DNA of 64,000 nt from an uncultured bacterium (GTDB taxonomy: Bacteria; Bacillota_I; Bacilli_A; RFN20; CAG-826): positions 4,924 to 68,923 of the forward strand of contig CASFSG010000027.1 of the NCBI GenBank assembly GCA_949297305.1. The letters run 5' to 3'. The position numbers and the translations under genes are program-made. Shown in pieces: positions 7,131 through 32,237 of the stretch (the first letter of the stretch is position 1; each line of letters begins with the position of its first letter). A model generated the notes under the pieces. The model was given only the letters and a program-made list of their open reading frames with translations. It was not told where the DNA came from and ran no database searches.

Positions 7131-7135
7131 TCAAA

Positions 7136-7435
7136 ATGAATTTACAACAAATGATGATGCAAGCACAAAAAATGCAACGTGAACTTAAAAAGGCTAATGA
7201 TGCTTTAGCAACCGAAGAGTTTGCCATCACTAAAGGTGGCGCAGTTATGGTCAAAATGCTTGGCAATAAAAGAGTTTTAGAAGTAAACATCGATAAAGAT
7301 GCTTTAAGCGAAGACAATAAAGAGATGCTCGAAGAATTAATTATGATGGCCATAAATGAATTAATTGAAGAAATATCGCAAAAAGAAACTGAAATGCAAG
7401 AAAGGATAACTGGTCGTGCTGGACCATTGTTTTAA
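7136..7435 (+). CDS. ybaB: Nucleoid-associated protein, YbaB/EbfC family
   Basis: MNLQQMMMQAQKMQ...GGAVMVKMLG; lies between dnaX and recR. Confidence 0.93.
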   Translation: MNLQQMMMQAQKMQRELKKANDALATEEFAITKGGAVMVKMLGNKRVLEVNIDKDALSEDNKEMLEELIMMAINELIEEISQKETEMQERITGRAGPLF

Positions 7436-8654: not shown

Positions 8655-9619
8655 ATATTAAGGACAATTTAATTAAATATCAACCAAGCGTTTATCAAAC
8701 ATTGCTAAACGCTAAAAAGAATAATCGTTTTTCGCACGCTTATTTATTAAGTGCTTCTTACGGCATGCCTTTAATTGATTTTGCTATCTATATCGCTCAA
8801 TCAATTTTATGTGATAATGGTAACCCTCTCGCTTGTTTAAATTGTATAACCTGCTTAAGAATCGCAGAAAAAAATTACGCTGATTTGCTCATCGAAGATG
8901 GCAGTAAAGAAAAAATTAAAAAGCAACAGATTGATAATATTGAACGTGCTTTTGTTAAAACAGCTTTAGAAAATAAGGGTAAAATGATTTATATCCTTCA
9001 CTTAGTTGAAAACGCAACTCCGATTGCTTTAAATTCCTTATTAAAGTTTTTAGAAGAGCCAAACCAAAATGTTTATGCCATCTTAACGACATATAACGAG
9101 AATAAAGTTTTACCGACGATTTTATCGAGGACACAAATTTTACATTTATCCCCAATCCCACGCTTAGATGTCATTAATCATGCCATAAATAACGGTGTCG
9201 CTATTGAAGACGCTGAACTACTTTCTAGCATCTATAACGATGATGAAAATTTAAAAGACTTTTCCTCTAGCGAAACATATAAAAAAATAAAAAGTTTATT
9301 GCTCGAATTTTTGGAAGAGTTTATTAGTAATAAAGACTATGGCAATTTCATCATGGAAAAGAAGATTATTCCTCAGATTAAAAGTTATGAACAAGTGGAA
9401 ATATTTTTCGACTTATTATTAGACTTTCTTTATAATCTAATGCTTAAAAAAATTTATCAAGAAATTGTTTTAAAAAGTTATGTTAAAATTATAGATGGTT
9501 TAGAAAATACAATTATTAACCCACAAAAAACTTTTTTAGAAATCTTAGAGGCAAAAAAGGCAATTGATATCAATATCAATATTCCTCTCTTGTTTGATCA
9601 TCTATTAAAAATACTTTAG
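8651..9619 (+). CDS. holB: DNA polymerase III delta' subunit
   Basis: SHAYL, Cys cluster (C...CLNCITC), NSLLKFLEEP, LPTILSR; tmk-holB-ricT synteny. GTG start. Confidence 0.92.
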   Translation: MNIKDNLIKYQPSVYQTLLNAKKNNRFSHAYLLSASYGMPLIDFAIYIAQSILCDNGNPLACLNCITCLRIAEKNYADLLIEDGSKEKIKKQQIDNIERAFVKTALENKGKMIYILHLVENATPIALNSLLKFLEEPNQNVYAILTTYNENKVLPTILSRTQILHLSPIPRLDVINHAINNGVAIEDAELLSSIYNDDENLKDFSSSETYKKIKSLLLEFLEEFISNKDYGNFIMEKKIIPQIKSYEQVEIFFDLLLDFLYNLMLKKIYQEIVLKSYVKIIDGLENTIINPQKTFLEILEAKKAIDININIPLLFDHLLKIL

Positions 9620-9627
9620 GAGAAAAT

Positions 9628-10458
9628 ATGGACAAAGAACAATATTATATTGGAATTAAATTCTATAACAATACATTCAACTATTTTTTTATGACCGAAG
9701 ATCCATCGATTAAAAAGGGCGATAATGTCGTCGTTGAAACATCGCGAGGCTTAGAGGTGGGTGTCGTCTCTTTTGATCCTATATCAATATCAACATATAA
9801 ACATTCCTTTGAGCTTAAACCGATTTTGCGAAAAGCAGACGCGAACGATATGATGGTCCATAAAGCAAATATTGAACGCGATAAAGAAGTAATTACAACC
9901 GCGAAGAAATTTGTCAAAGAATTGAATTTAGATATGCATATTTTAAACGCTGTCTTTTCATTAGATGGCACGAAATTGACAATTACATTTGTCTCGGATG
10001 ATCGCGTTGATTTTCGTGAATTAGTTAAAATGCTCGCATCTAAATATCGTTGCCGAATCGAATTAAAACAAATTGGACCACGCGATAAAGCTAAAACTAA
10101 TGGGGGGATAGGTGTTTGTGGCTTGCCCATCTGTTGTTCTAATTTTCTTAACGAAATTGAAACTATTTCAATCAATAAGGCGAAGAATCAAATGTTGTCT
10201 TTAAATATCTCAAAATTATCTGGTCCATGCGGCAAATTGCTTTGTTGTTTAAGCTATGAGGACGAATCATACACAAACGAGAAGAAGAAATTCCCTCCTT
10301 TAGGCGAAACTATTTCAATCGATGGCGTAATCTTTAAAGTCAATTCATTTAATATATTTTCAAAAGATATCAAAATTGAAAACGCGGATGAAGTGCGAAT
10401 TATCTCTTTAGAGGAGTATCAAAAGATAAGAAGGGGAAATCATAAAGACAACAAATGA
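9628..10458 (+). CDS. ricT: PSP1-domain protein RicT/YaaT
   Basis: VVVETSRGLEVG, DRVDFRELVK, IELKQIGPRD, GVCGLPICC, GPCGKLLCCL. Confidence 0.95.
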   Translation: MDKEQYYIGIKFYNNTFNYFFMTEDPSIKKGDNVVVETSRGLEVGVVSFDPISISTYKHSFELKPILRKADANDMMVHKANIERDKEVITTAKKFVKELNLDMHILNAVFSLDGTKLTITFVSDDRVDFRELVKMLASKYRCRIELKQIGPRDKAKTNGGIGVCGLPICCSNFLNEIETISINKAKNQMLSLNISKLSGPCGKLLCCLSYEDESYTNEKKKFPPLGETISIDGVIFKVNSFNIFSKDIKIENADEVRIISLEEYQKIRRGNHKDNK

Positions 10459-11309
10459 AACGCTCATTAAATTTTATTAGTGAAAAACCTTTACTCTATT
10501 TAGTCGCTACCCCAATTGGTAATTTAGACGATGTTTCAAAACGCACAATAGATGTATTAAATAGTGTCGATTTAATCGTCGCAGAAGATACACGGATAAC
10601 AAATAAACTTCTGCAAAAATTAAATATTAAAAAACCGCTTATCTATATGGAAAAGCATAATGAAAACATTGTTAGTAGAAAAATTGTCGATGAAATCAAC
10701 TCCCAAAATCGTTTAGTCGCTTATGTTAGTGACGCCGGATATCCTTGCATCTCTGATCCGGGTTCCTTTTTGGTGAAAGAAGCTTTGTCGAATAATATAA
10801 ATATTTCGGTAATTCCTGGTCCATCTGCATTTTTAAGCGCTTTAGTAGGATCGGGTTTATCAACTGATCATTTCTACTTTCATGGCTTTTTAGATTCAAA
10901 ACAAAAAGTAAAAAAAGAGGAATTGAGACAATTACAAAAAAGATCTGAAACACTTATTTTTTATGAATCGCCTTACCGCATTAAAAAAACAATAACTTCA
11001 ATGTTAGAAATTTTTGGTAATCGCAAAGCTTGCATTGCGCGCGAGTTAACAAAAAAACATGAAGAATACATCCGTGGAAATATCGAAGAATTGCTCGCGC
11101 TTGATTTAGATGCCTTAAAAGGTGAAATGGTGATAATAGTCGAAGGTTATAATGAGGAAATCAAACCTTCGCTAGATCGAAACACCATTCGCCTATTGGT
11201 TGAACAATTAACTGATATTGGAGTTTCGGCAAAAGATGCAATTAAACAAGTTGCCAAACAACATAAGTTAACTAAAAATTACGTTTATAAAACCTATCAC
11301 GAAAATTAA
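10455..11309 (+). CDS. rsmI: 16S rRNA C1402 2'-O-methyltransferase RsmI
   Basis: LYLVATPIGNL, AEDTR, VSDAGYPCISDPG, FYESPYRI, RELTKKHEE, KGEMVII. Confidence 0.97.
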   Translation: MKRSLNFISEKPLLYLVATPIGNLDDVSKRTIDVLNSVDLIVAEDTRITNKLLQKLNIKKPLIYMEKHNENIVSRKIVDEINSQNRLVAYVSDAGYPCISDPGSFLVKEALSNNINISVIPGPSAFLSALVGSGLSTDHFYFHGFLDSKQKVKKEELRQLQKRSETLIFYESPYRIKKTITSMLEIFGNRKACIARELTKKHEEYIRGNIEELLALDLDALKGEMVIIVEGYNEEIKPSLDRNTIRLLVEQLTDIGVSAKDAIKQVAKQHKLTKNYVYKTYHEN

Positions 11310-14385: not shown

Positions 14386-14754
14386 TTAGATTGTGGCTCC
14401 AATAACATCACTAACAGGCAAAGAAAAAGCGATGCCTTGGCCATTAGTGTCTAACCCAGCGTCTTTATAAACTTCCTTTAAAATATCGTCTCGCAATTCC
14501 TTATTTACTAAAATGAGAACAATTTCTTTTTCGGGCGAAATAATTACACCAAAGAACTTCTCCATTTCCTTTGTGCCAGTTCCTCTAGCGTGCAAGATTG
14601 TCCCACCTCTTGCCCCTTTTCTTTTGGCAGCTTCCATTACCAAATCAGCAAAACCGCCATTGACAATAACAACGATTAATTCTGCCTCTAATGGTGCATC
14701 TAACATCTCTTTTTTTAATTCATTTAATTCTTCATTCATTTTTATTTTCCTCAT
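14386..14754 (-). CDS. PII-like (GlnB superfamily) protein
   Basis: LIVVIV...GARGGTILHARGTG...EKEIVLILV...GQGIAFSLPVSDVIG, the PII beta-alpha-beta pattern with an RGxG motif. Confidence 0.88.
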   Translation of the reverse strand: MRKIKMNEELNELKKEMLDAPLEAELIVVIVNGGFADLVMEAAKRKGARGGTILHARGTGTKEMEKFFGVIISPEKEIVLILVNKELRDDILKEVYKDAGLDTNGQGIAFSLPVSDVIGATI

Positions 14755-15202
14755 CCTTTTCCTTTAAAAAACGCATATTGGCTAAATAGCGATACATCAC
14801 CACTCCAACAATTGAGGTCATCTTAATTGAGAAAGCAACCCCTTTAGCAGCCCGCGAAACTTTAAAACGATTCTCTAATAAATCTTTAATTTTTGCGGTG
14901 TTTTCCTCTTTAGCGATTGTTAAAATAACTTGTTTTTTAGTATCTGTTAAACCAATTACTTCATAAATATCCTTTGAGCCCGTGCCTTGACCAGCAATAG
15001 TAAAAGAGGCTCCAATTTCTGCGCTTTCTAGCTTTTTAATTATTGCATCAGCTTGGCCATAATTAACAATAATAATAAACAATTTTAATTTGCTCAAAGA
15101 ATGTTTGCTTTCAAATGTCGTCGTACCTAAATCGTTTCGATCATTTTTCTTTCGCGAAACATTTCTTTTTAATCTTTTAATAATTCTTTTAACTTCACCC
15201 AT
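14732..15202 (-). CDS. PII-like protein with a basic N-terminal extension
   Basis: LFIIIV...GASFTIAGQGTG...KKQVILTI...AKGVAFSIKMTSIVG; paralog of the next gene. Confidence 0.8.
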   Translation of the reverse strand: MGEVKRIIKRLKRNVSRKKNDRNDLGTTTFESKHSLSKLKLFIIIVNYGQADAIIKKLESAEIGASFTIAGQGTGSKDIYEVIGLTDTKKQVILTIAKEENTAKIKDLLENRFKVSRAAKGVAFSIKMTSIVGVVMYRYLANMRFLKEKDEENKNE

Positions 15203-15207
15203 ATTTC

Positions 15208-16740
15208 TTACTCAAAATGTATAACTTGCAAGTCAAATTCATCGCGGATGCTTTCGCGCGCTTTATGATAGATAAATTTCTTCCTAAAGATCGCTATTAA
15301 ACCAACCATTTGTAAAGTAATTAAAGGCATCATAGCTACTAAAGCTATCATCCCAAAAGCGTACTTCATTACATCGACACCATCGATGCCAATAGAAAGC
15401 GCTACACCAGTAGCAAACGGCACCAAAAATGTCGAATTCATTGGGCCACTAACAACGCCTCCACTATCAAAAGCAATGCCATTATAGATATCGGGGACAA
15501 TAAACGCTAAGACAAACGCTAAAGTATAGCCAGGGATAATATAATATAAAAGAGGAAACTGATATTTTATGCGAATAAGCGCAAGGGTAATTGCTAAGCC
15601 GTTGCCAAGAGCTAAAGCAATTAAGACTAAACCTTTATGAATGGTTCCATCACTAACAGTTTCAATCTCGGAAGTTAAAATATGGACAGCTGGCTCAGCA
15701 AAAATAGCGGCAACGCCTAAGAAAATACCAACTAAAATTAAAATCCAAAAATTGCTTTGGTTAATACCTAGCACAGTTCCTAATTTCGTTCCCATATTCA
15801 TAAACCCGGCCTCTACCGCCCCTAGGAATAATACTAAACCAACATAGGTATACACTAAAGCAATCAAAATTTTAAGCAAAGTCTTCTTAGGCAGTTTAAT
15901 AAAAATGAAATTAAAGATGAGAAAAAAGATAGCAATTGGAGATAAAGAAATTAAAACATTTAAAGATGAATCGGCAAAAGCGTGCCCTAATGGACCTAAA
16001 ACACCCGACATTGACTCGTTAGCAGAAGAAATTAAATCGATATTATTATGTTGCAAAACTAGCGATAAAATCATTACCATTAAAATCGGACCAATCGAAG
16101 CAAAAGCAACTAAGCCAAAGGAATCTGAATTAGTCTTTTTACCACCGCGACTTGTTGCTACACCAATCCCTAAAGCCAAAATAAACGGGACAGTAATTGG
16201 GCCGGTTGTGACACCACCACTATCTAAAGAAATTGGTAGATATTGTTCATCAAGCAAACAAGCGAAAGCAAACATTAAAGCATAAAAAGCGAGCAACCAA
16301 ACTTTCAAGCTCTTTTGAAAAATAATACGAAGAACACCAACAACTAAAAACGCACCCACGCCAACGCCAATTGTAATAATTAAAACATAGTTGTTGATTG
16401 GAACTTGGTTGGCTAAAGCCGATAAATCTGGTTCAGCAACAGTAATTAAAACACCTACTAAAAATACAATAATCACCAGCAAAACGATACTTTTTTTCTT
16501 TGTCAAGGTCGCACCAACATATTCGCCTAACTTCGCAGTGCTAGCTTCTGCCCCAACATTAAATAACCACATTCCTATCGTTAATAAAACCGCTGAAATA
16601 ACAAATAAAATAATGTCATCGTTAGTCAAAGTCTTTTCCAAGGCAAAACGATCGACGAGAAAAATAATCAAAACAATCATTACCACCGGCAAGGTAGATA
16701 AGACTGATTCTTTTAATTTTTTTAGCCACTCTAAAACCAT
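15208..16740 (-). CDS. DUF1538-like membrane protein, two internal repeats
   Basis: The repeats each carry AEP (TVAEPDL / FAEPAV) and DSGGV (LDSGGVTTGPITVPF / FDSGGVVSGPMNSTF); about 14 TM spans. Confidence 0.88.
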   Translation of the reverse strand: MVLEWLKKLKESVLSTLPVVMIVLIIFLVDRFALEKTLTNDDIILFVISAVLLTIGMWLFNVGAEASTAKLGEYVGATLTKKKSIVLLVIIVFLVGVLITVAEPDLSALANQVPINNYVLIITIGVGVGAFLVVGVLRIIFQKSLKVWLLAFYALMFAFACLLDEQYLPISLDSGGVTTGPITVPFILALGIGVATSRGGKKTNSDSFGLVAFASIGPILMVMILSLVLQHNNIDLISSANESMSGVLGPLGHAFADSSLNVLISLSPIAIFFLIFNFIFIKLPKKTLLKILIALVYTYVGLVLFLGAVEAGFMNMGTKLGTVLGINQSNFWILILVGIFLGVAAIFAEPAVHILTSEIETVSDGTIHKGLVLIALALGNGLAITLALIRIKYQFPLLYYIIPGYTLAFVLAFIVPDIYNGIAFDSGGVVSGPMNSTFLVPFATGVALSIGIDGVDVMKYAFGMIALVAMMPLITLQMVGLIAIFRKKFIYHKARESIRDEFDLQVIHFE

Positions 16741-17746: not shown

Positions 17747-18611
17747 TGATGAATTTCTTAATCTCCTCTAAATGGTTCAATGCATAATTTCTACCATCTA
17801 AATATAATTTTTCTATTTTAGAAATATCTTTTTCTGTTACCTTTACATCATAAGTTGTAAAAGGGGCAATGATATAAGCCTTATCTTTTGGTAAGGATTC
17901 AATATAATCAAGTTGACGATTATATGATAAATATTCTTCGCGGATGGCCTTACGAATATTTTGATATTTATGGCCATAAAAGATCGGTGATTTAGCAATA
18001 ATTTTATCGCGGAGATTCTTTTCCTTTCTTTTGCCTAAAGGGCGAGAAAGAATGATAACAACCTTCTTATAACCATCCTTAAAAACTTGTTCGACCGGCA
18101 AAGGGGTTTTAAGACCACCATCGAGATATTCGTGCTGATTAATAATAATTTTCTTTGATAATAGAGGCAATGAGGCGCTTGCGACACAAGCTTCTTTTAA
18201 AAAGCGTTCTGGTCCCATTTGACTTTTATAAAACGGTTCATACTCCCCTGTTTCTAAATTAGTAGCAATTGCTACAATCTCTTGATCACTATGAACAAAA
18301 ACATCTTCAGAAAAATGCAATTCGTTTTTTAAATCGTTCATTAAAAATTCAAAATTGAAAAAGGATCCGCTTGTTTTGCGGGCTTTTTTGCCAAAAAAGC
18401 GTTCGTCGTTCATATATTTTGTACAGACGACAAATGAACGCCCAACATCTTTAGAAACATAGTTGCAGGCATTTAAGACACCGCTAGAAACGCCTAAAAT
18501 ATAAGGAAAATATATACCCTCTTCAATTAAGACATCGATCACTCCGCTAGAGAAAGCGCCTCGAACGCCACCTCCTTGAATCGCTAATGCAACCTCTTTA
18601 TTCTTCACCAT
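17739..18611 (-). CDS. Patatin-like phospholipase family protein
   Basis: QGGGVRG, GVSSG nucleophile elbow, YLDGG. Confidence 0.92.
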   Translation of the reverse strand: MVKNKEVALAIQGGGVRGAFSSGVIDVLIEEGIYFPYILGVSSGVLNACNYVSKDVGRSFVVCTKYMNDERFFGKKARKTSGSFFNFEFLMNDLKNELHFSEDVFVHSDQEIVAIATNLETGEYEPFYKSQMGPERFLKEACVASASLPLLSKKIIINQHEYLDGGLKTPLPVEQVFKDGYKKVVIILSRPLGKRKEKNLRDKIIAKSPIFYGHKYQNIRKAIREEYLSYNRQLDYIESLPKDKAYIIAPFTTYDVKVTEKDISKIEKLYLDGRNYALNHLEEIKKFINE

Positions 18612-19458
18612 TTTTTAATAACTCATGATAAGAATCAATTCGACGATCGCGAAATACGCCCCATGAAATTCTCTCTTTATTTATCTCATCAAAATCAAAC
18701 TCATAGAGGCGATAACCTTCTTCTAGACGATTCATTTGCTCTACCACTTCGCCGTGCTGATTGGCGATAAAGGAATAGCCACCAAAGACCATCGATGAAT
18801 CTTTTGCCATCTCAATACCAACGCGATTACTGGCAATAACAGGAATCAAATTAGCGGAGGCATGACCTCTCATCGTATTTTGCCAATGAATCATCGAATC
18901 GCGTTCTAAAACCGGCTCGCTACCAATTGCTGTTGGATATACAATTAACTCAGCTCCTTTTAATGTTAAAATTCTAGCAACTTCGGGAAACCATTGATCC
19001 CAACAGATCCCTACACCAATTTTTCCATATTTAGTGTTAAAAACTTTATAACCTAAATCACCAGGAGTGAAATAGAATTTTTCTTCATAGCATTGTCCTG
19101 TTGGGATATGCATTTTGCGATATAGACCCAAAACGGTACCATCAGCATCAATCATCGCTAAAGAATTAAAATAATTAACTCCACTCTTTTCAAAAAACGA
19201 AATAGGCAAAACGACTTGATATTTTTTTGCTACTTCCTGAAAATGTTTAATTAAAGATGAATTTTTAAATGTTTCAGCTTTACTAAAATTATCATAGTCT
19301 TCAATTTGGCAAAAATATAAGTCAGAAAATAATTCTTGTAAAAGAATAATTTGAGCACCCGCGAGTTTTGCCTCTTCAATCATCTTATCAGCTTTTAAAA
19401 TATTATCTTCTTTTTTAGAGCTGATTTTCATCTGGGTGATTGCTACTTTGACTCTCAT
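18598..19458 (-). CDS. aguB: N-carbamoylputrescine amidase (nitrilase superfamily)
   Basis: LLQELF, YRKMHIP...YEEKFYFTPGD, GICWDQWFPE, YPTAIGSEP; adjacent to an agmatine deiminase domain. Confidence 0.93.
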   Translation of the reverse strand: MRVKVAITQMKISSKKEDNILKADKMIEEAKLAGAQIILLQELFSDLYFCQIEDYDNFSKAETFKNSSLIKHFQEVAKKYQVVLPISFFEKSGVNYFNSLAMIDADGTVLGLYRKMHIPTGQCYEEKFYFTPGDLGYKVFNTKYGKIGVGICWDQWFPEVARILTLKGAELIVYPTAIGSEPVLERDSMIHWQNTMRGHASANLIPVIASNRVGIEMAKDSSMVFGGYSFIANQHGEVVEQMNRLEEGYRLYEFDFDEINKERISWGVFRDRRIDSYHELLKNGEE

Positions 19459-22072
19459 CTATTTTTTCCTCCTTTAAAGGTATTTGCATAGTAATACAAT
19501 GGATGTTTCCACCGCCTAAAAGTATCTCGCGACTCTCAATTTGGATGACATCTTTATCAGGATATTGCTTTTTTATTTTTTTATAAGCAATTTCATCTTC
19601 TAAAACATTAAACTTAGGCACAATTACAAATTTTTCTCCTTGATAAAAATTAATGTAACTAGCCGCTAGGCGATTCCCTTCAATGCGTTCAATTGCACCA
19701 TAACGGTCGCTTTTAATGCCAGAAGATTCTTCTTTCGACATAAATAAGGGTTTGGGCAATGGTATTTTAATAATTTTAAAAGGATTGCCTAAAGCATCTG
19801 TTTCTTTTTTTAAGATGTTATAACAAGATAAAGAATAATTATATTGCGGATCCGCTTTATCCATGCACCACCCTAAAGCGATGACGCCTGGCCGCATAAA
19901 ACAAGCAATATTATCAACATGTTCATTTGTCTCATCTAAGTAAATACCATGTTTTAACCAAATAACTTTCGAAACATTTAAATAAATTTTCAAAGTTTCT
20001 TCAATTTCCTGTTTAGTTAAGGTAGGATTGCGACCCTTAGATAATAAACAAGCTTCAGTGACTAGACAAGTTCCTTGACCGTCGACATGAATACTACCGC
20101 CCTCTAAAACAAAATTATCGAGGTAATATCGATCGACATTAAAATATTTAGCAAGCGTCTTCTTTAACTGGTTATCTTCCTTATAATTCGAATACAAACC
20201 ATCAACATCGCCACCCCAAGCATTAAATCTAAAATCGATACATCGCAGCATGCCCTGTTTATTTTTTACAAAAATTGGTGAGGTATCGCGCGCCCAAGAA
20301 TCATCGTATTTAATTTTTATCGGAATAACATTAGGAATATTCTCATATTCAACAATAACTTTGTTATAGATGCTTGGATCAATACCAACATAAACTTTTT
20401 CATAATTTTTAATGGCCATAATAACATTTTTAAAGGCTTCACGAGCTGGGACGGCGTTATTTCGCCAGGTGTCTTTACGATATGGCAAAAAGATAATTGT
20501 TCCTTGATGCTTATCGCCTTCAAAGGGCATAAAATAATCATCGCCGCGCGGCGTAGTAATTTTCTTTAATAAATAATCATCTAAGCGATGACGATATAGG
20601 TGAAATTGTGGCCATTTCTCTTTATCGATAACCGACACATAATCAGTCCTTTTATATTGCGAAAGAATTGTACATTTGCTTTTTTTATACGCTAAAATGC
20701 GATTGACGAGTTCTTTAGTAAAAACTTCGCCTGGCACAATTAAAGGGATGCCCGGCGGATAAATCATCAATTGTTCTTTGCTAACTTCATTAATTGCTTC
20801 TTCTAAAGGCACTTTTTTACCAAAAGCGTGGTAGGCTAGACGCGGACGCATTAACATATAGGGAAAATCAATCCCAAATGTATGTTCAATCCTCGCGTTC
20901 GATTTCTTATAGTGTTTCTTAGAAATATCTTTCAAAGCCTTAATTAACGCTAGAATGTGTTTCTTTTTCGTGCCAATTGACAAAACGCACATCACAACAT
21001 ATGTTTCCGCTAATTCAACTTGAATGTTATACTCGCTTTTTAAAATTTTATATAATTCAAAACCATTAATGTCTAAGTGATCGATTGCAATAACTAATTT
21101 CGTTAAGTCATAATCAAAAGAGCCGTACTTAATAAAATGTTCTCTATCTACTGTTTTAAAACCTTTGATTTTATTGATTTGTTCACGCGCGAACAAAGAA
21201 TATTCTAATGTTCGGTTCATATATTCTTGGCCATGAAGAGCAACGAATTCACGCGCGGTATCTAAACTCGCTAATAAAAGTGTTGAGGGAGAAGTCGTAT
21301 TGATGATATTTAAAGTTTTTTGAATATCTTCTTTAAAGAAAATGCCTTCATTTAATAATAAAACGCTCGATTGGGTTAATGAGCCAGCAGTTTTATGGAA
21401 AGATACGCTCGCCATGTCCGCTCCCGCTTCCATCGCGCTTATTGGACCGTTTTTATTAAAATAGTAATGCGCACCATGAGCTTCATCAACTAAAACTGCC
21501 ATTTGACGTTTATGCGCTTCCTCAACCAAAGTTTTTAAATCTGTTACCGAACCAAAATAAGTTGGATTAATGATAAAAATTGCTTTTGCTGACGGATAGC
21601 GATTCATCGCTTTTATATATTCATCAACCGATGGTTGGTTAGCAATCTCAATTTCAGGATCAAGCTTAGGCATGATATAAATCGGTGTTGCCCCGCTAAG
21701 AACTAAAGAACTGACAATCGATTTATGCACATTCCTCGGTAGAATAATTTTATCGTTAGCCTTACAAGCAGTCATAATCATGGCAATAATGCCGCTAGTT
21801 GTGCCATTAATCAAAAAATAAGCACGATCAGCTTTAGCAAAATTTGCCATCAATCTAGATGCATCAAGCAAAACGCCAGTTGGTGATGCTAAATTATCTA
21901 AACCAATCGGAGCGTTCACATCCGCTTTAAAAACCATTTCTCCTAAAAAGGATTTTAATTTATTTGGAACACTGCCCATATGATGTCCAGGAACATCAAA
22001 AGGTGACACATCATCTAAGACATATTTTTTTAAGGCATCGAAATAAGGGGTTCTATGTTGTGATTTTTTCAT
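19415..22072 (-). CDS. Fusion protein: fold-type I Arg/Lys/Orn decarboxylase (aa ~1-485) plus agmatine deiminase (aa ~505-860)
   Basis: N-terminal half has FDVPGH, NGTTSG, PRNVHKS, VDEAHGAH, SFHKT (PLP Lys227) and YPPGIP. C-terminal half has MPFEGDKH, SWARD, LEGGSIHVDG, NEHVDN and GGGNIHCITMQ (catalytic Cys). One uninterrupted 885-codon ORF. Confidence 0.93.
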   Translation of the reverse strand: MKKSQHRTPYFDALKKYVLDDVSPFDVPGHHMGSVPNKLKSFLGEMVFKADVNAPIGLDNLASPTGVLLDASRLMANFAKADRAYFLINGTTSGIIAMIMTACKANDKIILPRNVHKSIVSSLVLSGATPIYIMPKLDPEIEIANQPSVDEYIKAMNRYPSAKAIFIINPTYFGSVTDLKTLVEEAHKRQMAVLVDEAHGAHYYFNKNGPISAMEAGADMASVSFHKTAGSLTQSSVLLLNEGIFFKEDIQKTLNIINTTSPSTLLLASLDTAREFVALHGQEYMNRTLEYSLFAREQINKIKGFKTVDREHFIKYGSFDYDLTKLVIAIDHLDINGFELYKILKSEYNIQVELAETYVVMCVLSIGTKKKHILALIKALKDISKKHYKKSNARIEHTFGIDFPYMLMRPRLAYHAFGKKVPLEEAINEVSKEQLMIYPPGIPLIVPGEVFTKELVNRILAYKKSKCTILSQYKRTDYVSVIDKEKWPQFHLYRHRLDDYLLKKITTPRGDDYFMPFEGDKHQGTIIFLPYRKDTWRNNAVPAREAFKNVIMAIKNYEKVYVGIDPSIYNKVIVEYENIPNVIPIKIKYDDSWARDTSPIFVKNKQGMLRCIDFRFNAWGGDVDGLYSNYKEDNQLKKTLAKYFNVDRYYLDNFVLEGGSIHVDGQGTCLVTEACLLSKGRNPTLTKQEIEETLKIYLNVSKVIWLKHGIYLDETNEHVDNIACFMRPGVIALGWCMDKADPQYNYSLSCYNILKKETDALGNPFKIIKIPLPKPLFMSKEESSGIKSDRYGAIERIEGNRLAASYINFYQGEKFVIVPKFNVLEDEIAYKKIKKQYPDKDVIQIESREILLGGGNIHCITMQIPLKEEKIDESQSSNHPDENQL

Positions 22073-24156: not shown

Positions 24157-25311
24157 ATGCCAGCATATAAAAAGAAATTTTGGATTAATCTAAGTGTCTT
24201 AATTTTATTAATAATTTTATTAATTGTATTTTTGTTATTAAGACAAAATGTACAGGTTGCTGAATTTATTACAAACACCTTTGGCCGTTATTATCAATTT
24301 ATTGCTACTTATTTATTTTCTTATATTCCAATATCGCTTTTAGGCGTTGGTATTTTAGCTTTAATAATTTATTTAATTGTCTGGTTAGTGCATTATATTA
24401 GACATTTAAAAAGAAACGGCAAAAGGTTTAGCAGTCAATATTGGTTTAAATTAGGATATATTTCTTTATCACTAGGTTTAATTTATTTATTAACCGCTGG
24501 TATGGCGTATAATCGCCTACCACTAAATAGCCCCACTTATAGTGTTAAAGAAGTTGATGAAAGTGAATATATGGATATCGCTAACTATTTTTTAGATGAT
24601 TATAACGAGGTAACCAATAAATTAACTTTTAATGAAGATACTGGTGAAGTTATAAATCCATATTCTTTAAAAGAAATAAACGAAATATTAAAACGCGAGT
24701 TTTCTAAATTAGATCAAAACTATTTTTATCAAGCGATTCCTCAAATAAAAGAATTTCATCTCTTATCTTACTTTTATCGTGAATTGCAAATTATTGGTGT
24801 CACCTTCGTGCCACTAGCGGAAGCCAATCTAAATAATTTAATGACTAAAAGTGAATATCCTTTTACTGCCGCACATGAAATTGCCCACACCTTAGGTGTT
24901 ATGCGCGAAGAGGACGCTAATCTAGTTGCCTTCTATATTTGTTACACTAGTAACGACCCCTACTTTAGATATTCAGCCTATCAAAGAACCTTCTCTAGTC
25001 TTTATCCTTTTGTCTTAACGCGTCTAGGACTAAATGGTTATCAGGATTTTGTTAATAAATTAGATGAAAAGATCATTAATAATATGCGTTATGACCAACA
25101 ATATTGGTCTAATTATCATCTATTAGATGATGTAGGAAATTTCTTCAATAATATCTACTTATTTTTATCAGGGAATAAGGGCACTTCTTCTTATAACGAT
25201 AATCTTGATACTGATATTAATCAAAACCCGGACGGAACAATAAAATATACCATCGGTTCTTTTTCTAGGTATCAAAACTTATATTTATATTTTTATTTTA
25301 ATAATTTATAA
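24157..25311 (+). CDS. DUF3810-like membrane-anchored zincin protein
   Basis: Three N-terminal TM spans, EANLN, AAHEIAHTLG...REEDAN (HExxH plus E). Confidence 0.78.
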   Translation: MPAYKKKFWINLSVLILLIILLIVFLLLRQNVQVAEFITNTFGRYYQFIATYLFSYIPISLLGVGILALIIYLIVWLVHYIRHLKRNGKRFSSQYWFKLGYISLSLGLIYLLTAGMAYNRLPLNSPTYSVKEVDESEYMDIANYFLDDYNEVTNKLTFNEDTGEVINPYSLKEINEILKREFSKLDQNYFYQAIPQIKEFHLLSYFYRELQIIGVTFVPLAEANLNNLMTKSEYPFTAAHEIAHTLGVMREEDANLVAFYICYTSNDPYFRYSAYQRTFSSLYPFVLTRLGLNGYQDFVNKLDEKIINNMRYDQQYWSNYHLLDDVGNFFNNIYLFLSGNKGTSSYNDNLDTDINQNPDGTIKYTIGSFSRYQNLYLYFYFNNL

Positions 25312-26109
25312 ATCTTCAACGACGAATCTTTGTGATTCTTCAAAAGGGGTTGGAAAGATAATCTTATCTTCTATTTCATAATATTCTAATGAAATTGTAT
25401 ATGAGCTTTCGATATCAACATAATATTTTGTTTGGCCTTCGATGATGACATCTCGCTCATATATTTCAAAAAAGGAGAAAGAGAATTCAAAATTATTTGC
25501 AATGATAAAATCTAAAGGAATTAAAAACTCTTCGTTATAATGAAAGGTGTTAAAAAATCTCTCTGCTACTCGTATTTTATATTCTTGATAAGCGATTTCT
25601 TTATAAGTATCAACGAGATATTTATCGTCTAACGCTTCTTCAACACTCAATTCTTGGACTATCAAATAGTTTTGTTTAAATAGCGATAAATCATCGATAT
25701 TACCATCAAAAGGATTACTATTGCTTATTTTTTGACCAAAGCAGATAACGGCAGATAATGGTGTTAGTCCTTCTTCATTAGCAAAAGCCGTATTACTAAA
25801 ATTATAATATTCTTCACTTCTTAATCCGTAAGAAATATCGCAAATTAGACCACCAGATTCTTTTATATTTTGATTTTCATGCGGGGCTAAAAAACCGATT
25901 AACACATTAGTAGAAGAATTTCCGCCGCCTCGAGGATCGGTATAATCGATAATGTGATTAATTTGGAATTTATCATAGATAAAATAATATTCGGTTCTTA
26001 AATTTGGATCATAAGGAAAAGGATTAAAAAAATCACAAGATGATAAAGCAAGAACACTTGGAAAAATCAAGGCTATAGTATTTACTTTTTTAATTAATTT
26101 ATTGGCCAT
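25306..26109 (-). CDS. Uncharacterised lipoprotein A (island)
   Basis: Lipobox LALSSC after a basic and hydrophobic signal; acidic/aromatic body; overlaps the upstream ORF by 11 nt. Confidence 0.75.
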   Translation of the reverse strand: MANKLIKKVNTIALIFPSVLALSSCDFFNPFPYDPNLRTEYYFIYDKFQINHIIDYTDPRGGGNSSTNVLIGFLAPHENQNIKESGGLICDISYGLRSEEYYNFSNTAFANEEGLTPLSAVICFGQKISNSNPFDGNIDDLSLFKQNYLIVQELSVEEALDDKYLVDTYKEIAYQEYKIRVAERFFNTFHYNEEFLIPLDFIIANNFEFSFSFFEIYERDVIIEGQTKYYVDIESSYTISLEYYEIEDKIIFPTPFEESQRFVVEDL

Positions 26110-28717
26110 AATTAAACATCCCTTTCGCTGTGATTTTATGAATGGAAATTCTTCCTTTATTTACATTACCGATTGGCTCGGTTTCAGCATATATTCTAAA
26201 TTTGTGTGTTGTTTCATCGATAAATCTGGCGTTTAAATGATTGGGATTTGTTCTATCGGTAGAAAGAACACAATCGGCAAGTAAATCAAATGAAGTAACC
26301 CAATCACCCACAAATTCATCATAATACTGAATATAAGCACTACTATCGGTTGATGTAAAATATTCAGAATCGCTCCAAAACGAAATATCAATATCAATTT
26401 CTCTTACAATGTCATCACCAAAATCAAATTCTAAATAAGCTAATCCTGCGCCCTCTCTTCTTGGTGATAAATTTATACATTCGTTTTGTATAAAACCAGC
26501 TCGAAGCCTCTTAGTAGAAACGGTGTATTCATCGAACAAAACCACATCTTCATTGATTTCTGCACTTGGATATCCATCATAAAATTCGGTCATTTCTGGA
26601 GTAATATCAACATTTATTTGAGGTATATATAAATCAACAAAATTTGAATAATATGGGCCAGTTTCTATTGAATCTCTTTCATTATAACCAGCAATCGCAA
26701 TGCTTACACGGCTAAATTCAGTTGCTAAACTCTTGATAATCGACCAAGTGGTTTCTGGTATTTTGTATGTGATTACACCATTTTCATCTGGTGTAAAATT
26801 TGTTATTAAATAAGAATCAATAAGTGTATAATTTTTAAACAAAGCTAACTTAAACTTATTCAATGGATTCTTTGATGAGCCATTTTCATTCCATTGTATT
26901 GTAGGAGAGGAATAAAAATCATAGTAACTGGTTATTGTTAGAGGACCAGGCCCAATTTTTGTTTTATTAAGTAAATCCCCTAGACCACCATAAAAACGAT
27001 AATCAGATTCGTATAAACTATCGATAAAATCAGAAAATGTATGTACGCCACTTGTTGTTAATAAATTCCAAACAATTTCATCGGTATATACATCTCCAAA
27101 ATCAAATTCTTTATTATAGAAATTCAATAGAAAAGTTGTGATAGCGTTTTCTTGCGTTTCACTAAATTCATGTCCACCATCTTTTATTTTTGGTCCATCT
27201 CCTTCTTCTTGACTTTGAGAATTTTCCTCGACATAGAAATTTAACGAATCATTATATAATGTGTTAAAGTTATCGAAACAAGTGCCAGAAATTAAATCAA
27301 AATATTCTTGATAAACCGCTAAAGGATAAAAATAGCCCCATCCTTCGGTCCATGCAATTCGCGTTGCTTTCTCCATACCATATGGAACATCATTCCATCC
27401 TAGATATTCCGCTAAATCTGCGCTACTACTATGCCTTACGCCGCCATTAATTAAATCTGTTAATTTTATTGAATAAATACCTAAATAATATTGCAAAAAA
27501 TGTGTATATTCATGAATAGCATTAAGCCAGTCGCCACAAATTTCAAAATCATATAGGCCATAATACATGTATGCAAAAGTAAGGTTTAATCCGCCGTCTC
27601 CATAATATGTATTATTAAGATCGTCTGAATCTGCTGGATATATGGCCATAAATCTCTCTGGCAAATTACTGCTTGTGATATTTTCTTTTTTATAATAGAA
27701 GCTTTGACCAAGGCTTAACGCAGCAGCAAGAGAAAAAGCACCATCAATCGCGCTATAGCCTTGATTTAAATTATAATCAATAACTATGTTTGTTGTGTAA
27801 GAGCGCCCTTCCTCTGCTAGAAGTAATCCACTTGTAATATAATAGCTTGGGGATTCAAAGAAATTCGCACTTAAAAATTTGCTAACAGTATTTACAGAAT
27901 ATGTTTCGTTTTCAGGATAAACAGCTACGTAAAAATAATCGGGTAAATATTCGTAAGGCACAAATTCTGCATAATAAAAACCATAAGGCATAGTTTCTGT
28001 TGTAAGAATAGGAGTGTCTTTTAAACAATCGTCTCCTTCTTTAAAAATTTTTACTGTAAATCCGTCTAAATATATATGTTTTTGTGCGTTTGGATCAAAT
28101 ACACTTATTTGTCCACCAATAGATACAATCTCATTTCTAATACCCATAGGGCTGATGCCTTGATTAGTAGAATTATCCACATAACTTGTTTCGGTTCTAA
28201 CATTTCTCATCATAAAAGACTCGAATAAATCGGTTTTATAGTCTTCTTGTATTTTTCCTAAAAGAATGCATTTATCCAACCATTTTTCAAATACATCCAA
28301 ATCTGAAACATAAGAAAATTCGGTTATTCCTAAATTAGAATAAATAAACAAATCAATTTTGCTACAATAATATTCATCTAAAAACACCGATAAATTTAGA
28401 CGGGAATAGTCTTCATTTATAAGGATAGAAACATTAAGGTTGTTCGTATTGAGTATAGATATATCAACATCGTCTAAGTTATAAGTTTTGTAAGAATATG
28501 TCGTTATAACTTTTTCATCAAAATCAAAAGAAAAATTATATTCATTTTCTATAATTAACGATTTATGAACTTTCTTTGGTAGAGTTTTTATTTCAATTAT
28601 GTTGTTTTCTTCATTTAATGCTTCAACTGGTTTGCTTATTTTTTGTTGACCATTAATGCCACACATTAAAAAAGCAACAATCATCGTAAGTGGAAATATT
28701 TTTTTAATTTTCATCAT
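26099..28717 (-). CDS. Large secreted multidomain protein, putative gluzincin metallopeptidase
   Basis: Signal peptide MKIKKIFPLTMIVAFLM..., AIHEYTHF followed by AWTEGWG, and beta-rich domains on both sides of the catalytic region; 872 aa. Confidence 0.7.
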   Translation of the reverse strand: MMKIKKIFPLTMIVAFLMCGINGQQKISKPVEALNEENNIIEIKTLPKKVHKSLIIENEYNFSFDFDEKVITTYSYKTYNLDDVDISILNTNNLNVSILINEDYSRLNLSVFLDEYYCSKIDLFIYSNLGITEFSYVSDLDVFEKWLDKCILLGKIQEDYKTDLFESFMMRNVRTETSYVDNSTNQGISPMGIRNEIVSIGGQISVFDPNAQKHIYLDGFTVKIFKEGDDCLKDTPILTTETMPYGFYYAEFVPYEYLPDYFYVAVYPENETYSVNTVSKFLSANFFESPSYYITSGLLLAEEGRSYTTNIVIDYNLNQGYSAIDGAFSLAAALSLGQSFYYKKENITSSNLPERFMAIYPADSDDLNNTYYGDGGLNLTFAYMYYGLYDFEICGDWLNAIHEYTHFLQYYLGIYSIKLTDLINGGVRHSSSADLAEYLGWNDVPYGMEKATRIAWTEGWGYFYPLAVYQEYFDLISGTCFDNFNTLYNDSLNFYVEENSQSQEEGDGPKIKDGGHEFSETQENAITTFLLNFYNKEFDFGDVYTDEIVWNLLTTSGVHTFSDFIDSLYESDYRFYGGLGDLLNKTKIGPGPLTITSYYDFYSSPTIQWNENGSSKNPLNKFKLALFKNYTLIDSYLITNFTPDENGVITYKIPETTWSIIKSLATEFSRVSIAIAGYNERDSIETGPYYSNFVDLYIPQINVDITPEMTEFYDGYPSAEINEDVVLFDEYTVSTKRLRAGFIQNECINLSPRREGAGLAYLEFDFGDDIVREIDIDISFWSDSEYFTSTDSSAYIQYYDEFVGDWVTSFDLLADCVLSTDRTNPNHLNARFIDETTHKFRIYAETEPIGNVNKGRISIHKITAKGMFNYGQ

Positions 28718-29583: not shown

Positions 29584-31038
29584 TCAATCAAATTTATTCG
29601 TCATATAGACATATTTAATCGCGCCTTCGATGCTTTGTTCTTTAGCTTCTAGGCCATATTTATCAACTTCTTTTTTATCTCTTACTTCGTGAGTTAAACA
29701 ACAAGGCCCACCAATACAACCATTCGTGCAAATCATCCCTTCGATGAAGTTATAAGGCTTTTCAGCGCCTTGCGATTTCACCAATAATTGACGGCACATA
29801 TCTAAACCATCACCAATTCCAGCGTTTAATTCAAAGTTGATATTTTGTTCTTTTAACGCTTCATTCACCGCATCATGGAGACCTCCACTACGCGCGAAGA
29901 TACGGCCAAAATAAGAAGCGTTATCTAACGGAGACTCTTCTAATTTTGAAGCGTCAATATCGCGACTATCGATTAAAGCCTGCAATTCTTCAAATGTTAA
30001 AACAGAATCGATGTATTGAGAAACTTTCGGACGTTTTATTTCTTGTTTTTTAGCAACGCATGGTCCAATAAATACAATTTTAGATGTTGGATCAACGGTT
30101 TTAATATATTGGGCAATCGTCGCCATCGGAGAAAGGTTTTCGGAAATATTCTCTTTTAATTTAGGAAATTTCTTTTCCACAAAACTAACAAAGGCTGGAC
30201 AACAACTTGATAGTAAAAAACCTTTTTCAGATAATTCTTTCGCTTCTTTATAAGCGACCATATCAGCCCCTAAAGCCGCTTCGACGACATTGTGGAAGCC
30301 TAATACTTCAATCGCTTTAATAATTTGCCCTAATGTTGCATATTTAAATTGTGAAGAAATCGAAGGGGCAATAATCGCGTATAAATGATATTTTCTAGAG
30401 AAATCGCTATCTTTAATCATATCGATGACATCGGTGATATAAGACACATCCATAATCGCACCGAAAGGACATTGATAGACACACTGACCGCATTGGATAC
30501 ATTTTTCGTCGTCGATTTCGGCAGCGAAGTTAGCGTCCGGTTTAATCGCTCCCATCTTGCAAGAGGCTTCGCAAGGGCGGGTATAATTAGTAATCGCATT
30601 ATATTGACAGGCTTTCGCACATAAACCGCAGTTGATACATTTGGTTTTATCAATATGGGCGGTACGAGTTTGTTGATCGAAAGTAATGGCTTTTCTAGGA
30701 CAAGCTTTTTCACAGCGATGAGCGATACAACCGCGACAATTGCGAGTGACTTCATAACCGCCTAAAGGACATTCGTCACAAGCAATTTTTAAAACTTGCA
30801 CGACATTATTGCGTGAGCGATCACCACCTAAAGCCATTCGCATTCTTTCTTGAACGATTGCTCTTTCTTTATAAACGCAGCAGCGAAATGTCGACTTTGG
30901 TCCAGGTGAAATAATTTCAGGAATTTTATTATAATCTTCTAGCAAGGTACCATTAAAATAGGCTTTCGCAACTTCTTTAAGGACACTGTATTTTAATTCT
31001 TGAACCCGGGTATCAAATTTAGCTTTAATCTCTTCCAT
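29584..31038 (-). CDS. Monomeric ferredoxin-type [FeFe]-hydrogenase (group B, HfsD/HydA2-like)
   Basis: H-cluster motifs SSCCPAF, GPCVAKKQE and EGMICTNGCIGG; N-terminal CCVYKER/CDEC and three CxxCxxCxxxC ferredoxin motifs. Confidence 0.93.
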   Translation of the reverse strand: MEEIKAKFDTRVQELKYSVLKEVAKAYFNGTLLEDYNKIPEIISPGPKSTFRCCVYKERAIVQERMRMALGGDRSRNNVVQVLKIACDECPLGGYEVTRNCRGCIAHRCEKACPRKAITFDQQTRTAHIDKTKCINCGLCAKACQYNAITNYTRPCEASCKMGAIKPDANFAAEIDDEKCIQCGQCVYQCPFGAIMDVSYITDVIDMIKDSDFSRKYHLYAIIAPSISSQFKYATLGQIIKAIEVLGFHNVVEAALGADMVAYKEAKELSEKGFLLSSCCPAFVSFVEKKFPKLKENISENLSPMATIAQYIKTVDPTSKIVFIGPCVAKKQEIKRPKVSQYIDSVLTFEELQALIDSRDIDASKLEESPLDNASYFGRIFARSGGLHDAVNEALKEQNINFELNAGIGDGLDMCRQLLVKSQGAEKPYNFIEGMICTNGCIGGPCCLTHEVRDKKEVDKYGLEAKEQSIEGAIKYVYMTNKFD

Positions 31039-31055
31039 AATAAAAACTCCAATCT

Positions 31056-32237
31056 TTAAAAATAACTTACTTTGATGGACTTATTCATCTTTTTAAGAGC
31101 TTTTGAGAGTTCATCCACCAGTTGCATTTTAGTATTAAAATTAATCGCTAAGCCTTCTTGCTGATGAGCGGGATTAATCGCGCAGCCAACAAAGAAATTT
31201 ATATCGGTGGCTTCTTCAAATAGTAAGCGAGCAATTTGTGAAGCGCCATCTTGTTTAAATGACCAGGTAAAATAATCTTTGTTATCACCAAAAACATTAT
31301 TAGCGTATTGTAAGACTTTATTAATTGTAATAACACCTTCAGTAACTAAATCTACCCCTTCAATATGAGCGGTAGGAGGTACTTCAGGATCAATATAATC
31401 TAAAGGAAATTCTAATTCTTTTTTCAAATATCTTGAAACGACACTTGAAGTTGTTCCGCCACAAACGATGTGTTTACCTTCTTTAGCGAAAAATAAAGAT
31501 AACATTTTACTATCGTCTTCGCGATTAGAAGCTGGACCAATCATTAAATTTACTTGTTTGCGGGGACGAATTTTAATCACCGCGCAGGTCGCGTCATCGC
31601 CCGGCTTGTTTTCATATAGGTCATTGACATGACTAACGATATAGGTGGCAAGGGATTTTGCCGAATATTTTTTGTCAAATAATCCTTCAGCATAATCGAT
31701 GACATCCATTAGTTCCCAACCAAAGTTCAGCGTCGCACCAATCCCAGCATGAATTACCCCATCACTCATCAAAAAGAAACTATCGTTTTCTAATAAATAT
31801 GTCGAGGCATATGAAATTGTTTTACCATCGATTATTTGGCTTCGCCAATCAAGAGGCGAATATTTTCCATTTCTTAATAAAAATGGTTGTGGATTATCAT
31901 AATTATAAACGACCGCTCGACGACTATTTGTTACATGAATAATTGTAAAAGTCGAATAAGCGACATTCCGCACTTTACAAACAGGCAAAGTCTCCATGAT
32001 AGTTCGAATGCTTTCTTCTAAGGGAATATCATGTGAAATTAAAGTTGATAAAATTTCGCTTGTTAAGGTGCTTAAAATATTAGCCTTAACCCCACTACCA
32101 AGACCATCGGCTAAAACGAGAGTAACCGTATTCTTGTTGGGATCAGATACTACTTGGACACAATCGCCACAAAGTTCTTCTTTGTCGTGATTAATTGATA
32201 AATAACCGATCTCAGTAATGAGATTACTCACCATCAT
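31056..32237 (-). CDS. SpoIIE/PP2C-family Ser/Thr phosphatase (HfsC-like)
   Basis: LCGD, LADGLGSGVKANILS, YSTFT, MSDGV, PGDDAT, plus the C-terminal HIVCGGTT...LVTEG domain. Confidence 0.92.
   Translation of the reverse strand: MMVSNLITEIGYLSINHDKEELCGDCVQVVSDPNKNTVTLVLADGLGSGVKANILSTLTSEILSTLISHDIPLEESIRTIMETLPVCKVRNVAYSTFTIIHVTNSRRAVVYNYDNPQPFLLRNGKYSPLDWRSQIIDGKTISYASTYLLENDSFFLMSDGVIHAGIGATLNFGWELMDVIDYAEGLFDKKYSAKSLATYIVSHVNDLYENKPGDDATCAVIKIRPRKQVNLMIGPASNREDDSKMLSLFFAKEGKHIVCGGTTSSVVSRYLKKELEFPLDYIDPEVPPTAHIEGVDLVTEGVITINKVLQYANNVFGDNKDYFTWSFKQDGASQIARLLFEEATDINFFVGCAINPAHQQEGLAINFNTKMQLVDELSKALKKMNKSIKVSYF

Follow-up and report, generated by a model that had tools for sequence, protein, structure and literature searches.

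A putative arginine decarboxylase-agmatine deiminase fusion paired with aguB in uncultured gut Bacilli

The textbook route from arginine to putrescine runs through agmatine and N-carbamoylputrescine and is carried out by three separate proteins. The characterised system closest to the locus described here is that of Streptococcus pneumoniae, which comprises the arginine decarboxylase (ADC) SP_0916 (SpeA), AguA and AguB (PMC7531197; PMC8503589). The closest characterised fusion is a 783-aa protein of Fusobacterium nucleatum, in which an ornithine decarboxylase (ODC) of the short, “ancestral” form (aODC) is joined to an arginase/agmatinase-like domain (Li et al. 2021, PMC8503589). Other bacterial fusions of consecutive or cooperating polyamine enzymes, AdoMetDC-aminopropyltransferase (Green et al. 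2011, as cited in PMC6356823) and SpeD-SpeD(ODC) (Li et al. 2023, PMC10407285), have been shown to be bifunctional. Here we analyze a 64,000-nt stretch of contig CASFSG010000027.1 from an uncultured bacterium (the window), in which a putative ADC and an agmatine deiminase (AguA or AIH) share a single polypeptide and the gene for the third enzyme, aguB, overlaps the end of the fusion gene.

The fusion open reading frame (ORF) lies at positions 19415-22072 of the minus strand, begins with ATG and encodes, uninterrupted, 885 amino acids that comprise a decarboxylase, a connector, an agmatine deiminase and a short tail. The window DNA has a low GC content of about 33% and was read with the standard bacterial code. 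According to Pfam, residues 8-371 belong to OKR_DC_1 (E 2e-69; 234.6 bits against a gathering threshold of 27), residues 393-462 to OKR_DC_1_C (38.1 bits against 24.2) and residues 515-865 to PAD_porph (E 7e-105). The ORF listing, Pfam and NCBIfam thus agree with a sequence-only reading of this DNA, which had placed the decarboxylase and the deiminase in one 885-aa ORF. All motifs named in that reading were located, namely SFHKT (residues 224-228), WARD (593-596), EGGS (657-660), HVDG (662-665), NEHVDN (716-721) and HCIT (858-861), and the linker that it quoted, KEKWPQFHLYRHRLDDYLLKK, corresponds to residues 484-504 (nucleotides 20561-20623). We consider it probable that the ORF encodes a natural bifunctional arginine decarboxylase-agmatine deiminase that acts together with AguB.

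The fusion gene is genuine and not an assembly artefact. An identical 885-aa protein, with the same 44-nt overlap with aguB, is found on contigs of ENA ERZ16268138, Logan ERR10610526 and ENA ERZ17292902, each copy being one synonymous nucleotide apart from the window gene. When 5.8 billion proteins were searched, more than 120 clusters (at 90% identity) emerged whose 868-900-aa members have this set of three Pfam domains, at 64-92% identity; after a second search the family counted at least 155 full-length members, all in separate 90% clusters, from NCBI, ENA, JGI and Logan. Because the same ORF recurs across assemblies and in at least 155 variants, a stop codon or frameshift in the connector, the doubt that had accompanied the original proposal, is excluded as far as assemblies can show, and none is seen in the three other assemblies.

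The connector itself points the same way. In alignments, free-standing short-form decarboxylases (480-500 aa) cover residues 2-487 and free-standing AIHs begin at residue ~504-513, so that only about 20 residues are specific to the fusion. We place the connector at residues 488-510 (20543-20611, minus strand) from these borders and from an AlphaFold2 model run on a 55-sequence family alignment, which predicts it to be partly helical, with a helix at 488-503. Trp-487, Pro-508 and Asp-511 at its borders are invariant family-wide, even in members with a degenerate deiminase (see below), which makes the junction look like a connector under constraint, not like a floppy linker. That a sequencing or assembly error merged two neighboring genes is next to inconceivable, given four independent records with the identical ORF, 155 full-length variants from four data sources and a conserved connector with these three invariant residues.

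The decarboxylase module, a putative arginine decarboxylase, covers residues 1-487 (20612-22072, minus strand) and is of the short (“ancestral”) form of the Orn/Lys/Arg decarboxylases with an aspartate aminotransferase (AAT) fold, as judged by Pfam, the PDB entry 2x3l and Foldseek. The N-terminal REC/wing domain is absent, the OKR_DC_1 match beginning at residue 8. The module matches the short-form decarboxylase of Staphylococcus aureus (2x3l) at E 4e-38 and with a Foldseek template-modelling (TM) score of 0.78-0.80. In fold-type I enzymes the lysine of an S-x-H-K motif binds pyridoxal 5'-phosphate (PLP), and the aspartate of D-E-A-H pairs with the pyridine nitrogen. Both motifs are found here: S224-F-H-K227 and D196-E-A-H199 align with 2x3l, the codon of the predicted PLP-binding Lys-227 (SFHKT) lying at 21392-21394 (minus strand). 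His-30, Gly-90, Asp-196, His-199, Ser-224, His-226 and Lys-227 are invariant in all 155 family members.

The agmatine deiminase module comprises residues 511-865 (19478-20542, minus strand). It scores 436.3 bits on NCBIfam TIGR03380 (agmatine deiminase, EC 3.5.3.12; cut-off 381.8), and the AIH of Arabidopsis thaliana (1vkp/3h7c) matches it at E 3e-95. The AlphaFold2 model of the module superposes on 3h7c/1vkp in Foldseek with a TM score of 0.95 and a root-mean-square deviation of 1.5 Å, which corresponds to the five-bladed α/β-propeller (PAD/GME) fold. In an alignment with the Enterococcus faecalis enzyme AgDI (2jer), Asp-596, Glu-714, His-718, Asp-720 and Cys-859 are equivalent to Asp-96, Glu-214, His-218, Asp-220 and Cys-357, respectively; Cys-859, the predicted catalytic nucleophile, is encoded at 19496-19498 (minus strand). 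These five residues are retained in 150-151 of the 155 family members. An AIH signature of ten residues is unchanged in 147 members, and four further members differ at one position of it, His-662 in three cases and Asp-596 in one. Cys-859 itself is present in 151 members and replaced by Glu or Asp in the remaining four, which we refer to as dead-AIH members.

The dead-AIH members (P0122, P0271, P0272 and P0273) share 64-75% identity with P0122 and 43-44% with the window protein. Their decarboxylase is intact, while in the deiminase domain Cys-859 has become Glu or Asp, Asp-720 has become Ser, Trp-593 and Arg-595 are replaced, and His-718 is Lys in three of the four. P0122 reaches 45.8 bits on TIGR03380 and 28.8 bits on Pfam PAD_porph. 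Among the four members the dead domains are 51-67% identical and the decarboxylase modules 73-80%; the identity of the dead domains to active AIH domains is 23%. In a neighbor-joining (NJ) tree of the decarboxylase domain the lineage is monophyletic in 200 of 200 bootstraps and always nested in the fusion clade, and the active fusions are never monophyletic by themselves (0/200), so the dead-AIH lineage descends from an active fusion. Dead-AIH fusions lie at L031:8001-10592, L036:10001-12601 and L037:3994-6594. At the two readable loci, L037 and L036 (the latter on a 227-kb contig), the fusion is followed by a helix-turn-helix regulator and not by aguB. That AIH catalysis was lost where aguB is also absent is the best evidence at hand for a joint action of the AIH module and AguB in the main lineage. 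Moreover, the persistence of the dead domain, full-length and in frame, suggests that it is retained for a non-catalytic role.

Could one module of the window protein likewise be a pseudoenzyme, leaving a monofunctional protein? Degeneration did occur inside the same family, and the aODC-arginase-like fusion of Fusobacterium provides a precedent (PMC8503589). For the window protein this explanation is nevertheless very improbable. All catalytic residues that were checked are present, the score on TIGR03380 is 436 bits compared to 46 bits in the dead lineage, and aguB is kept. The ratio of nonsynonymous to synonymous substitution rates (dN/dS; Nei-Gojobori method, against the 92%-identical homologue L001) is 0.03-0.04 in both modules, more precisely 0.026 for the decarboxylase and 0.041 for the AIH module, with 0.059 for the connector. 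Among pairs of active members, the ratio of C-domain to N-domain identity is 1.01. Judged by these values, both modules are under strong, and equally strong, purifying selection.

The gene for the putative third enzyme, N-carbamoylputrescine amidase (AguB, CN_hydrolase family, 286 aa), lies at 18598-19458 on the minus strand. It matches Pfam CN_hydrolase at E 1e-52 and retains the catalytic triad of the nitrilase superfamily, Glu-42, Lys-115 and Cys-152. Both genes share 44 nt (19415-19458), so the ORF coordinates bear out the earlier statement that the last 44 nt of the fusion belong also to the amidase gene. A strong Shine-Dalgarno sequence, AAAGGAGG (19468-19475, minus strand), is read 9 nt upstream of the aguB ATG, and because it sits inside the 3' end of the fusion ORF, translation of aguB is likely coupled to that of the fusion. 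In all 11 species-level genomes with a full-length fusion (55-92% identity), aguB lies directly 3' of it (64-90% identity). The wider surroundings are syntenic as well and include a pseudouridine synthase, a DUF1538 membrane protein with two P-II-like genes, and a YfhO-like protein, which argues for vertical inheritance. Family conservation and synteny thus back both the completeness of the two catalytic modules and the coupling to aguB, as first proposed.

These 11 genomes, found in a scan of one genome per GTDB species, are all metagenome-assembled genomes (MAGs). A library of 1.84 billion representatives at 50% identity contains only two full-length fusion representatives (P0121 and P0122), and the family is therefore narrow in sequence space, yet rich in variants. 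By its occurrence it is confined to one clade of uncultured, anaerobic, low-GC gut Bacilli, an assignment that rests on MAG titles of which several are evidently wrong; the titles include “Bacilli bacterium”, “Bacillales bacterium UBA6865” and a horse faeces source. Five MAGs (L003, L004, L006, L009 and L028) are titled Coriobacteriaceae, Bacteroidaceae, Staphylococcaceae, Lachnospiraceae and 'Roseburia hominis'. They are syntenic with the window neighborhood just as the Bacilli-titled MAGs are, and their bin taxon names look wrong.

The fusion clade is monophyletic in 200 of 200 bootstraps of the NJ tree, with P0125 (114/200) or P0126 (64/200) as its sister, and the tree indicates that the fusion originated once. 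The closest free-standing AIH, P0128, is 54% identical and belongs to an aguA-aguB pair without a decarboxylase. In the event that we envisage, a decarboxylase gene would have been set in frame upstream of aguA in the ancestor of the clade, perhaps with a pre-existing aguA-aguB pair as the recipient, an order suggested by this one unfused relative only. Vertical inheritance would then have followed, with strong purifying selection acting on both modules.

In the proposed pathway, the decarboxylase would convert L-arginine to agmatine and CO2 using PLP at Lys-227; the deiminase would hydrolyze agmatine to N-carbamoylputrescine and NH3 through a thiouronium intermediate on Cys-859; and AguB would hydrolyze N-carbamoylputrescine to putrescine, CO2 and NH3. 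With the fusion covering the first two steps and aguB the third, the whole route from arginine to putrescine would be contained in two genes, and the fusion would fix a 1:1 synthesis of the first two activities. We infer a biosynthetic role and stoichiometric co-expression. Channelling of agmatine between the two active sites might be imagined in addition, an idea that goes beyond any result presented here.

Several results weigh against this reading. With 405.9 bits on TIGR03381, AguB falls about 4 bits short of the cut-off of 410.25, the next-best family reaching 122.7 bits. The AlphaFold2 model has a mean pLDDT (predicted local distance difference test) of 83.7 and a predicted TM score (pTM) of 0.60, a value at which the placement of the two modules is not confidently predicted and at which a tunnel or facing active sites are unsupported. 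Genes for later steps of polyamine metabolism and for polyamine transport (speE, speD, CASDH, CANSDC and pot genes) were not found among 49 scanned ORFs of the 64-kb window, in line with the earlier remark that speE, CASDH and nspC are not seen nearby. Of the 49 ORFs with 150 aa or more, this Pfam scan covered 48, together with a 122-aa P-II-like ORF; the ORF left out (9681-10175, minus strand) lies antisense inside another ORF. The remaining points concern the substrate of the decarboxylase. The short-form family spans ADC, ODC, lysine decarboxylase (LDC), bifunctional ornithine/lysine decarboxylase (O/LDC), YaaO-type and non-polyamine clades (Li et al. 2021, PMC8503589). With P0305, a 490-aa “arginine decarboxylase” of the Bacillus subtilis group, the module shares 39% identity, and with the Fusobacterium-type aODC P0156 38%; these two are 47% identical to each other. 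(A B. subtilis SpeA probe served for retrieval only; the comparisons used the database proteins that it retrieved, P0305 among them.) Since SpeA and aODC are closer to each other than to the module, identity or orthology cannot assign the substrate. Orthology to B. subtilis SpeA was considered and rejected, because at 39% identity the fusion clade stands apart from the SpeA clade in the NJ tree, which was built without the characterised ancestral-type ADCs of S. pneumoniae, Clostridioides difficile and Selenomonas; the fusion clade is also separate from the Fusobacterium-type aODC.

It could be, then, that the two modules do not catalyze consecutive steps. The decarboxylase would act on ornithine or lysine, or have a YaaO-like role outside polyamine metabolism, and AIH and AguB would use agmatine from the gut, which would make the protein a junction of two parallel diamine routes. 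Identity does not separate ADC from ODC, short-form ODC, LDC and YaaO-type enzymes exist, Fusobacterium couples a short-form ODC to an arginase-like domain (PMC8503589), and the dead-AIH lineage keeps its decarboxylase without aguB (L036 and L037), which implies that the decarboxylase can be useful alone. We nevertheless regard this explanation as unlikely, and most of what opposes it also favors arginine as the substrate.

First, the decarboxylase is fused to an AIH, aguB invariably lies downstream, and the dead-AIH lineage, in which AIH catalysis was lost, lacks aguB at both readable loci; a fusion of consecutive steps is the more parsimonious account. Second, one of the two candidate sisters of the fusion clade, the free-standing P0126 (44% identity to the module), overlaps the next gene by 8 nt (L038:637-2977), and that gene encodes a bona fide agmatinase (TIGR01230, 277.7 bits against a cut-off of 174.3). 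By these assignments the speA-speB-type pair is an alternative two-gene route to putrescine. Third, the short forms from class Bacilli that were tested by Li et al. had ADC activity only (PMC8503589). Fourth, a fusion of the same kind arose independently: P0194 (1051 aa; L034:1793-4948 and L035:1893-5048) combines a SpeA-like decarboxylase of the alanine-racemase (AR) fold with an AIH (TIGR03380, 445 bits). Its N-terminal part has biosynthetic ADC models as best match, residues 395-690 between the domains have no assigned domain, and its context is prokaryotic (F420 ligase, GNAT) with no aguB adjacent. The independence of this fusion argues that the joining of ADC and AIH was selected more than once. 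Finally, in many Firmicutes the YaaO-type gene, which is connected to EF-P modification, sits immediately upstream of tmk (PMC8503589). We considered a YaaO-type identity and rejected it, as tmk (8031-8654, plus strand) is preceded by recR and the fusion is 11 kb distant, on the opposite strand. Taken together, these points make L-arginine the quite likely substrate of the decarboxylase.

The tmk gene belongs to a block of dnaX, recR, tmk, holB, PSP1/yaaT and rsmI (5409-11309, plus strand), with no yaaO-type paralogue before tmk.

What would the route serve? The ATP-yielding agmatine deiminase pathway is described in PMC12283126 as using putrescine carbamoyltransferase and carbamate kinase. 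In the window the third enzyme is an amidase instead, which indicates a biosynthetic configuration that does not yield ATP, and among the scanned window ORFs neither putrescine carbamoyltransferase nor carbamate kinase nor an agmatine/putrescine antiporter was found. On the other hand, the pathway might be mainly catabolic or protective, turning arginine into putrescine, 2 CO2 and 2 NH3 with consumption of protons in an acidic, arginine-rich gut, and exporting the putrescine. A decarboxylation followed by two deaminating hydrolyses is net alkalinising by established chemistry, the host, a fermentative anaerobe, has [FeFe]-hydrogenase-like genes, AdhE and Rex, and spermidine-synthesis genes were not found in the 64-kb window. 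Such genes could, however, lie elsewhere in the genome, no arginine/agmatine or agmatine/putrescine antiporter is adjacent, and AguB stands where this explanation would expect putrescine carbamoyltransferase and carbamate kinase. We therefore think a mainly catabolic or protective function rather unlikely, and favor the biosynthetic role, next to which a role in pH or nitrogen balance is possible.

A more far-reaching idea, which we regard as doubtful although somewhat less so than the catabolic one, is that the modules form an obligate assembly, in which agmatine would reach the deiminase site directly from the PLP site, with no equilibration with the cytosol, and the deiminase would have become a structural necessity for the decarboxylase. 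Such an assembly would explain why the dead AIH domain was kept under purifying selection after the AIH/AguB chemistry had been abandoned. If it existed, the family would offer a natural series from a bifunctional enzyme to a pseudoenzyme-scaffolded decarboxylase, with P0194 as a convergent AR-fold counterpart. A Foldseek search found no PDB entry that spans both modules. Each of the two parent families consists of obligate oligomers.

The C-terminal tail (residues 866-885 plus the stop codon; 19415-19477, minus strand) is specific to this lineage. Its borders follow from the lengths of relatives and from the AlphaFold2 model, in which it is disordered (pLDDT below 50 at residues 870-885); its dN/dS is 0.51, over few sites. 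Most relatives are 868-876 aa long, so that their ends fall about 10 residues before that of the window protein. The overlap with aguB is likewise specific to the lineage, the fusion entering aguB by 44 nt in the window and by 35 nt in L001 (12615-12649), whereas in L002 (12595-12619) and most relatives it stops before aguB. An A-run at 19462-19467, just upstream of the aguB ATG, is the single homopolymer-sensitive spot of the gene and bears on the 20-residue tail only; a change in its length could explain the differing tails.

Two neighboring genes were considered as further partners and rejected. The upstream gene for a BD-FAE hydrolase shows synteny in the closer relatives (L001-L006) only. 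A patatin-like gene directly follows aguB only in L001 and L002; it is missing in L003-L006 and lies 0.7-2.6 kb past aguB in L007-L010 and L028. A promoter and terminator scan was uninformative, with 34 promoter-like sites compared to 32 expected by chance, and we do not rely on a TTGAAG-16-TATAAT site that ends 8 nt before the fusion ATG. Rfam has no match near the fusion locus; the only match in the window at the gathering threshold is a small SRP RNA (signal recognition particle RNA; RF00169, 60.2 bits) at 48858-48955 (minus strand).

Elsewhere in the window, a 510-aa DUF1538 membrane protein and the two small P-II-like proteins after it (14386-16740, minus strand) form a trio that is syntenic with the fusion locus in most related genomes. 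The region 51259-63144 is a replication-origin region with dnaA (58530-59891), dnaN, recF, gyrB and gyrA on the minus strand, yidC and jag on the plus strand from 60946, and a sign change of the GC skew near 60 kb. Some 37-40 kb separate the fusion from dnaA, and it has the orientation of the genes that lead away from the origin on that side. At 29584-33912 (minus strand) a SpoIIE-type phosphatase is flanked by two [FeFe]-hydrogenase-like genes, one of which has a PAS domain and looks like a sensory hydrogenase module; these genes adjoin AdhE (34187-36805) and Rex (36806-37468). Two adjacent ORFs of 267 and 872 aa without a Pfam match lie at 25306-28717 (minus strand), and the larger, which has a signal-like segment at its N-terminus and an HEYTH (HExxH-type) motif, may encode a secreted protein resembling metalloproteases.

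The searches also returned other unusual architectures. P0237 (754 aa) joins an unassigned 400-aa N-terminal region to an AIH, and P0171 (556 aa) a 5-formyltetrahydrofolate cyclo-ligase to an AIH. P0145 (734 aa) combines an NNMT/PNMT-type methyltransferase with a short-form decarboxylase, and P0268 (2469 aa) carries a short-form decarboxylase near its N-terminus.

In the searchable full text we found neither a description nor a characterised example of an ADC-AIH fusion, which accords with the sequence-only reading, although an earlier mention is possible in Burrell et al. 2010 or Green et al. 2011. The locus apparently presents a domain architecture that has not yet been described, built from well-known enzymes and without new chemistry. 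Its interest is moderate and lies with specialists in polyamines and enzyme evolution, for whom the dead-AIH lineage and the convergent AR-fold fusion enrich what would otherwise be the story of a single gene. Channelling of intermediates and stoichiometric coupling in polyamine synthesis could readily be tested on the fusion, whose context supports an ADC assignment in a hitherto unplaced clade of short-form AAT-fold enzymes, in which the sequence alone cannot predict the substrate. The dead-AIH sub-lineage, for its part, is a clean example of a catalytic domain that became a pseudoenzyme and was kept, with the gene for the following step lost alongside. The family is named “agmatine deiminase” at NCBI or “lysine decarboxylase” at JGI; with more than 150 proteins thus named by half of their predicted function, metabolic reconstructions may miss the ADC step and score these uncultured gut Bacilli as unable to make putrescine from arginine.

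In comparison to the S. pneumoniae set, which also comes from class Bacilli, the window would carry out the same three reactions with the same three families (short-form OKR_DC_1 ADC, PAD_porph and CN_hydrolase). There, however, the enzymes are three separate polypeptides, whereas in the window the first two form one chain and the third gene overlaps it. The window decarboxylase is likened to SP_0916 by description, and its separation into another clade is seen relative to B. subtilis SpeA (39% identity). The fusion of F. nucleatum, of which a representative (P0156) was recovered, resembles the window protein in that an N-terminal short-form AAT-fold decarboxylase is followed by a C-terminal hydrolase of guanidino groups, and its predicted-inactive C-terminal domain parallels the dead-AIH sub-lineage. 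It differs in pairing an ODC with an arginase-fold partner, while the window protein carries a PAD-fold AIH with all catalytic residues and is followed by aguB; according to the NJ tree the two fusions are independent events. The AdoMetDC-aminopropyltransferase and SpeD-SpeD(ODC) fusions concern other enzymes and steps, and neither joins an ADC to an AIH.

The deiminase module has a close structural counterpart in the AIH of A. thaliana (1vkp, 3h7c and 3h7k), with 43% identity over the Foldseek alignment at the TM score given above and the same Cys/His/Asp set. In plants and most bacteria, unlike in the window, the ADC is a separate protein of the AR fold. The metagenomic, uncharacterised P0194-type fusion follows the same logic as the window protein, with a decarboxylase N-terminal to an AIH of the same family, but its decarboxylase has the non-homologous alanine-racemase fold and its genomic context is another one, without an adjacent aguB.

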